Below are positions 94 to 430 of a stretch of DNA of 64,000 nucleotides, one piece after another; the stretch's first letter is position 1; the number at the start of each line of letters is the position of its first letter. The stretch is from Escherichia coli (GTDB taxonomy: Bacteria; Pseudomonadota; Gammaproteobacteria; Enterobacterales; Enterobacteriaceae). The position numbers and the translations under genes are program-made. Location: NCBI RefSeq assembly GCF_003018115.1, contig NZ_CP027457.1; one strand, written 5' to 3'. The notes beneath the pieces are model-generated. The model saw nothing but the letters and a program-made list of their open reading frames with translations, did not search any database and was not told the DNA's origin.

Positions 94-430
94 GCCGGAT
101 GCGGCGTGAACGCCTTATCCGGCCTACGGTTCAGGCACAGGTTTGTAGGCCTGATAAGACGCGTAAGCGTCGCATCAGGCAATGGTGCTCGGATGCCGGA
201 TGCGGCGTGAACGCCTTCTCCGGCCTACGGTTCAGGCACAGGTTTGTAGGCCTGATAAGACGCGTAAGCGTCGCATCAGGCAATGGTGCTCGGATGCCGG
301 ATGCGGCGTAAACGCCTTATCCGGCCTACGGTTCAGGCACAGGTTTGTAGGCCTGATAAGACGCGTAAGCGTCGCATCAGGCAATGGTGCTCGGATGCCG
401 GATGCGGCGTGAACGCCTTATCCGGCCTAC
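94..430. repeat. Tandem BIME/REP array: three full 101-bp units (94-194, 195-295, 296-396) plus a partial fourth (397-430), each holding two inverted REP palindromes
   Basis: Direct reading: the unit gccggatgcggcgtgaacgccttatccggcctacggttcaggcacaggtttgtaggcctgataagacgcgtaagcgtcgcatcaggcaatggtgctcggat recurs head-to-tail with single-base differences (cttatcc vs cttctcc; gcgtgaac vs gcgtaaac). Confidence 0.9.

Follow-up and report, generated by a model that had tools for sequence, protein, structure and literature searches.

A BIME-2 array with a strain-variable number of units between copA and ybaQ of Escherichia coli

Architecture and class of the copA-ybaQ repeat

The DNA analyzed here (referred to below as the window) is a 64,000-nt stretch of the Escherichia coli contig NZ_CP027457.1 (RefSeq assembly GCF_003018115.1). 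It opens with the 3' end of copA, encoding a copper-exporting P-type ATPase (1..36, plus strand; assigned from the sequence and from orthologous loci annotated as copA), whose C-terminus, ...ANRLLRFKPKE*, closes at position 36 with the TAA stop codon at 34-36. On the minus strand lies ybaQ (453..794), encoding a HigA-family antitoxin or DNA-binding regulator according to the ORF list and the RefSeq annotation of its orthologue, with the stop codon at 453-455. The two genes are convergent and have a common spacer of 416 bp, inside which, between both stop codons, the repeat array is located; 22 nt separate the ybaQ stop codon from the last REP of the array. No repeat feature is listed at copA-ybaQ in the RefSeq annotation of MG1655.

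Tandem Repeats Finder (TRF) detected a single array at 93-431, with a period of 101, 3.4 copies, 98% matches, no indels, and a score of 664. In register, the array consists of three full units (93-193, 194-294, and 295-395) followed by a partial unit of 36 nt (396-431), and in each unit a Y REP is joined by a 17-nt linker to an inverted Z2 REP, after which comes a linker of 13 nt. Pattern searches placed the Y REPs on the plus strand at 94-127, 195-228, 296-329, and 397-430 and three identical Z2 REPs on the minus strand at 145-180, 246-281, and 347-382, whereas neither pattern gave any match in 100 dinucleotide-preserving shuffles of the window. The 17-nt linker, GGTTCAGGCACAGGTTT, runs between the CTAC and GTAG ends of Y and Z2 (128-144, 229-245, and 330-346), and the 13-nt linker, AATGGTGCTCGGA, leads from Z2 to the next Y (181-193, 282-294, and 383-395). 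Over the 339 bp compared, the units differ at only two sites, both in Y REPs, namely A>C at 218 in the second and G>A at 310 in the third. The description given in the first-pass annotation, that is, near-identical 101-bp tandem BIME units between copA and ybaQ, each with two inverted REP palindromes and differing by single bases, is thus confirmed by TRF, by the typing of the palindromes as Y (plus) and Z2 (minus), and by the base-by-base comparison. Immediately upstream, at 66..92, a repeat search and the same kind of comparison revealed a decayed remnant of the end of a further unit (the 3' part of Z2 and the linker), in which 17/27 bases are identical to the unit consensus.

Each REP folds on either strand as a bulged stem-loop of about -21 kcal/mol (-21.3 kcal/mol for the Y REP and -21.4 to -21.9 kcal/mol for the Z2 REP). 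The fold of the whole spacer, compared with those of shuffled sequences, gave z-scores of -11.3 and -10.4 for the two strands, with strong local hairpins on both. A separate, copA-proximal palindrome at 48..77 was found in the fold of 45-92 (about -21 kcal/mol on the plus strand); its stem of roughly 13 bp begins 11 nt past the copA stop codon and is not followed by a U tract. This palindrome is also present in outgroup Escherichia and in CFT073 and KOr019, whose REP-less spacers measure 57 nt, and is kept by all the examined alleles that have the ancestral copA-proximal spacer, being absent from strain GF43, in which the spacer has been replaced. A match to the Rfam family naRNA4 at 49-124 is weak (39.5 bits, under the gathering score of 59.5). 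The palindrome may represent the genuine conserved structure at the 3' end of copA or, alternatively, an ancient REP-like hairpin that has degenerated.

The class of the repeat was assigned by comparison with the reference Y, Z1, and Z2 sequences of PMC11208160. The Y copies are identical to the published Y sequence at 33-35/35 bases, and the second REP type is identical to Z2 at 34/37 bases versus 29/37 for Z1. Ton-Hoang et al. (PMC3333891) define BIME-2 as a multiple tandem array of z2 and y REPs joined by short linkers; within a locus the copies have a well-conserved sequence, and E. coli strains differ in how many of them a given locus has. The window's array has Y and Z2 REPs (not Z1), which alternate in inverted orientation with short linkers of 17 and 13 nt, its tandem copies are conserved, their number is variable among strains, and it is extragenic, in the 3' region between the copA and ybaQ stops. 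Judged from these sequence features, the copA-ybaQ repeat is a textbook BIME-2 array of alternating Y and Z2 REPs.

BIME-1 (also called RIB or RIP) has in common with this array the inverted REPs and the extragenic location but is built as Y-L linker-Z1 in a single copy, with an IHF site (PMC3333891), whereas the copA-ybaQ array has Z2, linkers of 13 and 17 nt, and tandem units. In BIME-1, IHF binds within the long L linker (PMC3333891), and a motif search for the IHF consensus WATCAANNNNTTR found none in 1-460 on either strand. A BIME-1 with IHF binding is ruled out by the Z2 typing, the tandem units, and the missing WATCAANNNNTTR in 1-460. Of the gyrase and IHF binding that had been ascribed to the array on first inspection, the gyrase part agrees with published work on BIME-2 (PMC6379681), but the IHF part belongs to BIME-1.

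The orthologous array of K-12 MG1655 (NC_000913.3 508,560-508,874) occupies the same locus with the same flanks, 101-bp unit, and linkers and differs in having a 315-bp spacer with 2.4 units, one fewer than in the window, and the unit variants 16A, 48A, and 70G. The family of the array has long been known, and K-12 itself carries the array at this locus.

The identification as BIME-2 also keeps three repeat-derived ORFs from being annotated as genes. These overlapping plus-strand ORFs (45..311, 182..412, and 283..687) are present in the ORF list with near-identical translations, as stated in the first-pass annotation, which had already called them spurious; their lengths are 76-134 codons, and in two cases the start codon is ATG, as it might be for a real small protein. 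Nevertheless, the chance that one or more of them is such a protein is next to nil. Because 101 bp is not divisible by 3, the reading frame of the "same" peptide shifts from one unit to the next; the ORFs vanish or alter in length as the unit number changes in other strains; the third (283..687) runs antisense through ybaQ; and the RefSeq annotation has no gene here in any orthologous locus examined. A Pfam search of the three ORFs gave no family match, and the protein-coding reading was rejected on this ground.

Unit number across strains and the history of the array

The number of units at the orthologous locus was read from evenly spaced samples of a base set of 5,426 complete E. coli genomes, and frequencies were obtained with flanks-only queries in two such samples (n = 120 rows altogether). 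The REP-less state (0 units, 57-nt spacer), represented by CFT073 and KOr019, was found in 29/120 rows, and a lone Y REP (0.4 units, 113 nt), as in S10, in 26/120. The spacer of 214 nt with 1.4 units, as in O157:H7, accounted for another 29/120 rows, and that of 315 nt with 2.4 units, as in K-12 MG1655 and F9792, for 24/120. The 3.4 units of the window (416 nt), shared with AR_0369, 2017-03-3CC, HS, BL21/B, and C, were seen in a single row (1/120) and are thus a minority state, at about 1% of the sampled genomes, which nonetheless occurs in at least 30 records, among them BL21/B derivatives, HS, and strain C. The longest form, with 5.4 units in a 618-nt spacer, was that of LR882050. In one further row (1/120) the array was split by IS621, and in 10/120 ybaQ was missing. 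The copy number variation between strains that had been anticipated from the window sequence is therefore real; the invariant unit count that the first-pass annotation had named as the finding that would speak against any special interest of the array is not what E. coli genomes have, the range being 0 to 5.4 units.

Inside the sampled clonal groups, in contrast to the differences between lineages, the unit number is constant: 2.4 in K-12, 1.4 in O157:H7, and 3.4 in BL21. This pattern indicates that the pace of change is that of lineage divergence and not that of a phase-variable switch.

The closest relatives of the window among the matches listed, five complete O169:H41 ETEC genomes with 99.7% identity over 8 kb, carry 2.4 units without exception. 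Because tandem repeats can be miscounted by short-read assemblies, the extra unit might be suspected to be an assembly artefact in a strain whose true number is 2.4, as in its nearest relatives. This suspicion is barely credible, since the array is merely 339 bp and the middle unit has its own marker, the C at 218, which is missing from the flanking units and would not be created by a collapse or expansion artefact; moreover, the C variant and the 3.4-unit state are both found in independent finished genomes. The best identity of complete genomes to the window stretches 1-8000 and 40000-60000 was 99.4-99.7%, and the genomes nearest to the window were O169:H41 ETEC strains and two chicken isolates.

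The near-identity of the copies had also been taken as a sign of recent tandem amplification. That the closest listed relatives have one unit fewer supports this interpretation, but the C variant of the extra unit occurs in the arrays of other strains as well: C at unit position 25, the mark of the middle unit in the window, is also carried by units of the 2017-03-3CC and LR882050 arrays. The variants 11A, 16A, 43T, and 57A likewise combine differently among strains, so that unit variants are shared in a mosaic pattern. A fresh duplication would account for these sequence patterns no better than repeated unequal exchange within an old polymorphic array common to the strains. By analogy with other members of the family, the array would expand and shrink through unequal exchange or slippage between near-identical units, and TnpA_REP, the REP-associated transposase, might help in the gain and loss of units.

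Concerning the origin of the array, the units within the locus are 98-99% identical, versus 88% or less when compared with BIME-2 arrays elsewhere in E. coli genomes, which argues that the array grew from one local founder unit. Three syntenic loci from Escherichia other than E. coli disagree with one another, in that one has 0.4 units, one is REP-less, and one has 1.4 units with diverged linkers. The occurrence of both kinds of locus in the outgroup indicates that the BIME-bearing and REP-less alleles are both old. In E. albertii, a ybaQ-like gene does not adjoin copA.

The copA-ybaQ locus is generally plastic beyond the number of units. Thus, ybaQ is absent from about 8% of the sampled genomes; it is deleted with a BIME unit retained in CUVET19-1993 (L013 3037-3339) and on a REP-less background in TUM10828 (L025 2537-2707), and GF43 has, in place of the entire spacer, an unrelated GC-rich sequence of 428 nt (L026 2537-2964). 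Collectively, the locus offers a clean natural allelic series (0-5.4 units, IS621-interrupted, and ybaQ-deleted) with the same two genes. With this series one could test whether the formation of 3' ends between convergent genes is tuned by the number of REP copies; the question has been reopened by the REP325 preprint (bioRxiv 10.64898/2026.03.23.713779).

Mobile-element targets and resemblance to REP325

Within the Z2 REPs, a motif search located the sequence ATCAGGCCTAC on the minus strand at 145-155, 246-256, and 347-357. IS621 encodes a bridge-RNA-guided recombinase of the IS110 family. Its natural bridge-RNA target is this 11-nt sequence (PMC11208160). Indeed, in MFDS1016424 and H6, IS621 sits in a Z2 REP of the orthologous array at GTAG|GCCTGAT, with an AG (CT) core at both junctions; the inserted elements (L011 454-1434 and L012 1645-2625, respectively) lie at sites orthologous to 145-155 / 246-256 of the window, whose own copA-ybaQ array, unlike those of the two strains, is without IS621. 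The coordinates of the copA-ybaQ array of BL21(DE3) were not found in the text supplements of the IS621 bridge-RNA paper. In S6aCHROMc and UTAK-1, the locus has the same 9,077-bp span as in the IS621-bearing strains.

The cleavage motifs of TnpA_REP have been reported as TGCC|TGA and GGCC|TAC together with the 5' GTAG (PMC3333891). In the array, GTAGGCC is present at 7 REPs and GGCC|TAC at all 7 REPs, and TGCC|TGA is found at every Z2 and also within every 17-nt linker. With these motifs and the bulged stems in the folds, the array would qualify as a putative substrate of TnpA_REP (RAYT).

The closest characterized relative of the copA-ybaQ array is REP325, the source of naRNA1-6, which is located at yjdM-yjdN in K-12. 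Both have the layout of Z2-13 nt-Y-17 nt, with a unit identity of 84% (87/104), and their linkers are equal in length but different in sequence. REP325 has a period of 100 and 5.8 copies, compared with a period of 101 and 3.4 copies here, and lies between co-oriented genes of one operon, whereas the copA-ybaQ array lies between convergent genes.

This likeness is reflected in the Rfam search by cmscan, where three Z2-linker-Y segments on the minus strand, 148-225 (81 bits), 249-326 (89.3 bits), and 350-427 (87.1 bits), each matched RF02564 (naRNA4) over the full model (1-77), all above the gathering score of 59.5 bits. As the minus strand is the sense direction of ybaQ, these matches could be taken to mean that the array consists of three naRNA4-type genes, whose RNAs bind HU, bridge cruciform DNA, and condense the nucleoid, as was proposed for REP325 in the original naRNA4 model (PMC4550694). 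We consider this highly unlikely. RF02564 fits any Z2-linker-Y unit, in that it also matches the plus strand of the array (58-64 bits) and an unrelated BIME at 7488-7565; a match therefore marks the repeat family and not a functional sRNA gene. Moreover, no promoter-like site was found within the array, and many strains are without the array. The model itself has been weakened by the REP325 preprint, whose authors include the senior author of the original naRNA4 work: it reports that deletion or over-expression of REP325 leaves the nucleoid volume unchanged, that no stable HU-crfDNA-naRNA4 complex forms, and that REP-REP contacts are absent in Hi-C, leaving REP325/naRNA4 with no measurable role in nucleoid compaction (bioRxiv 10.64898/2026.03.23.713779). 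With the assignment to BIME-2, the naRNA4 matches are explained by resemblance within the repeat family and are no evidence of a functional sRNA locus. The second BIME is a single BIME-2 unit at 7485-7568 (naRNA4, 74.3 bits), consisting of Z2 at 7485-7520 (minus strand), a 14-nt linker, and Y at 7535-7568. A lone Y REP is found at 18916-18949 on the minus strand.

Transcript ends, gyrase, and the likely role of the array

A search for intrinsic terminators (a GC-rich hairpin with a U tract) gave none in 1-1000 on either strand, and the reading of the array as an intrinsic terminator was rejected because 1-1000 has no terminator-like site. REP stem-loops have been described as barriers to 3'-to-5' exonucleases. 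To our knowledge, protection from RNase E, which the first-pass annotation had suggested looking for, is not what REPs are known for, and RNase E is not the relevant nuclease for REP stem-loops. Transcripts of copA or ybaQ that enter the array would fold into the REP stem-loops of about -21 kcal/mol, and, as in other members of the family, the stem-loops in both 3' UTRs may block 3'-to-5' exonucleases. From the literature on REPs, it also seems plausible that the hairpins would cause partial, largely Rho-dependent termination and so keep the convergent copA and ybaQ units apart.

In the preprint, REP325 is reported as a partly Rho-dependent terminator and stabilizer of the upstream mRNA; REPs between convergent genes are associated with higher expression of both, and almost 40% of the REPs in this position fall inside bidirectional terminators that have been mapped (bioRxiv 10.64898/2026.03.23.713779). 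The same source describes REP effects as context-dependent, with mRNA half-life not uniformly altered. The locus is mentioned in its text supplements by a single copA row of a differential-expression table, with a non-significant log2 fold change of -0.70 (adjusted p 0.41).

On the DNA level, the Y REPs would presumably serve as binding and cleavage sites of gyrase, judging from what has been published on BIME-2, where gyrase cleavage is enriched, mostly at y REPs, independently of transcription (PMC6379681). Neither copA nor ybaQ is mentioned in the text supplements of that Topo-seq paper.

About a quarter of the sampled genomes are REP-less with both genes intact, which shows that any function of the array is dispensable, and whole phylogroups without the array retain intact copA and ybaQ. 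The most fitting view is that the array is a selfish or near-neutral repeat, whose local effect, if any, is a modulating one. All the observations considered, a BIME-2 array with strain-variable units, dispensable and at most modulating its surroundings, is very probably the best explanation of the locus.

An alternative is that the unit number is an adaptive dial, heritable and selectable, each unit changing the transcript ends or stability of copA and ybaQ. The copy number does differ between lineages while being constant in each sampled clonal group, and the preprint describes transcription of REP325 as yielding a ladder of truncated RNAs and proposes REPs as "tunable dials", to which the higher expression of convergent pairs with REPs may be added (bioRxiv 10.64898/2026.03.23.713779). 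However, neutral unequal exchange with clonal inheritance predicts the same pattern of copy numbers, and the expression of convergent pairs is uncorrelated with REP conservation scores in the same source; a dial accordingly appears unlikely, though less so than the naRNA4 model. If it were true, lineages at different points of the range from 0 to 5.4 units would express the copper pump or YbaQ at different levels with the coding and promoter sequences unchanged. The array matters little beyond its correct annotation.

Several minor features of the window and its orthologous loci were also noted. Upstream of ybaQ, B2-type strains retain a gene for a RelE/ParE (HigB-like) toxin, which is intact in KOr019 and carries a frameshift in CFT073 (L006 971-1272 and L009 1877-2179; the counterpart region of the window is 795-931). 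The window and K-12 have just a 137-nt ybaQ-ybaP spacer, so that ybaQ is an orphan HigA-type antitoxin in both. In the two B2-type loci examined (CFT073 and KOr019), the toxin-bearing allele is also REP-less. Elsewhere in the window, Rfam matches above threshold were obtained for the DnaX ribosomal frameshifting element (15488-15552, minus strand), the small SRP RNA (ffs; 32355-32451, minus strand), and sraA (50103-50198, plus strand), and the sRNA ChiX (Rfam sroB, 82.1 bits) was found at 1725-1808 on the minus strand, between ybaP and ybaK, as annotated in K-12.
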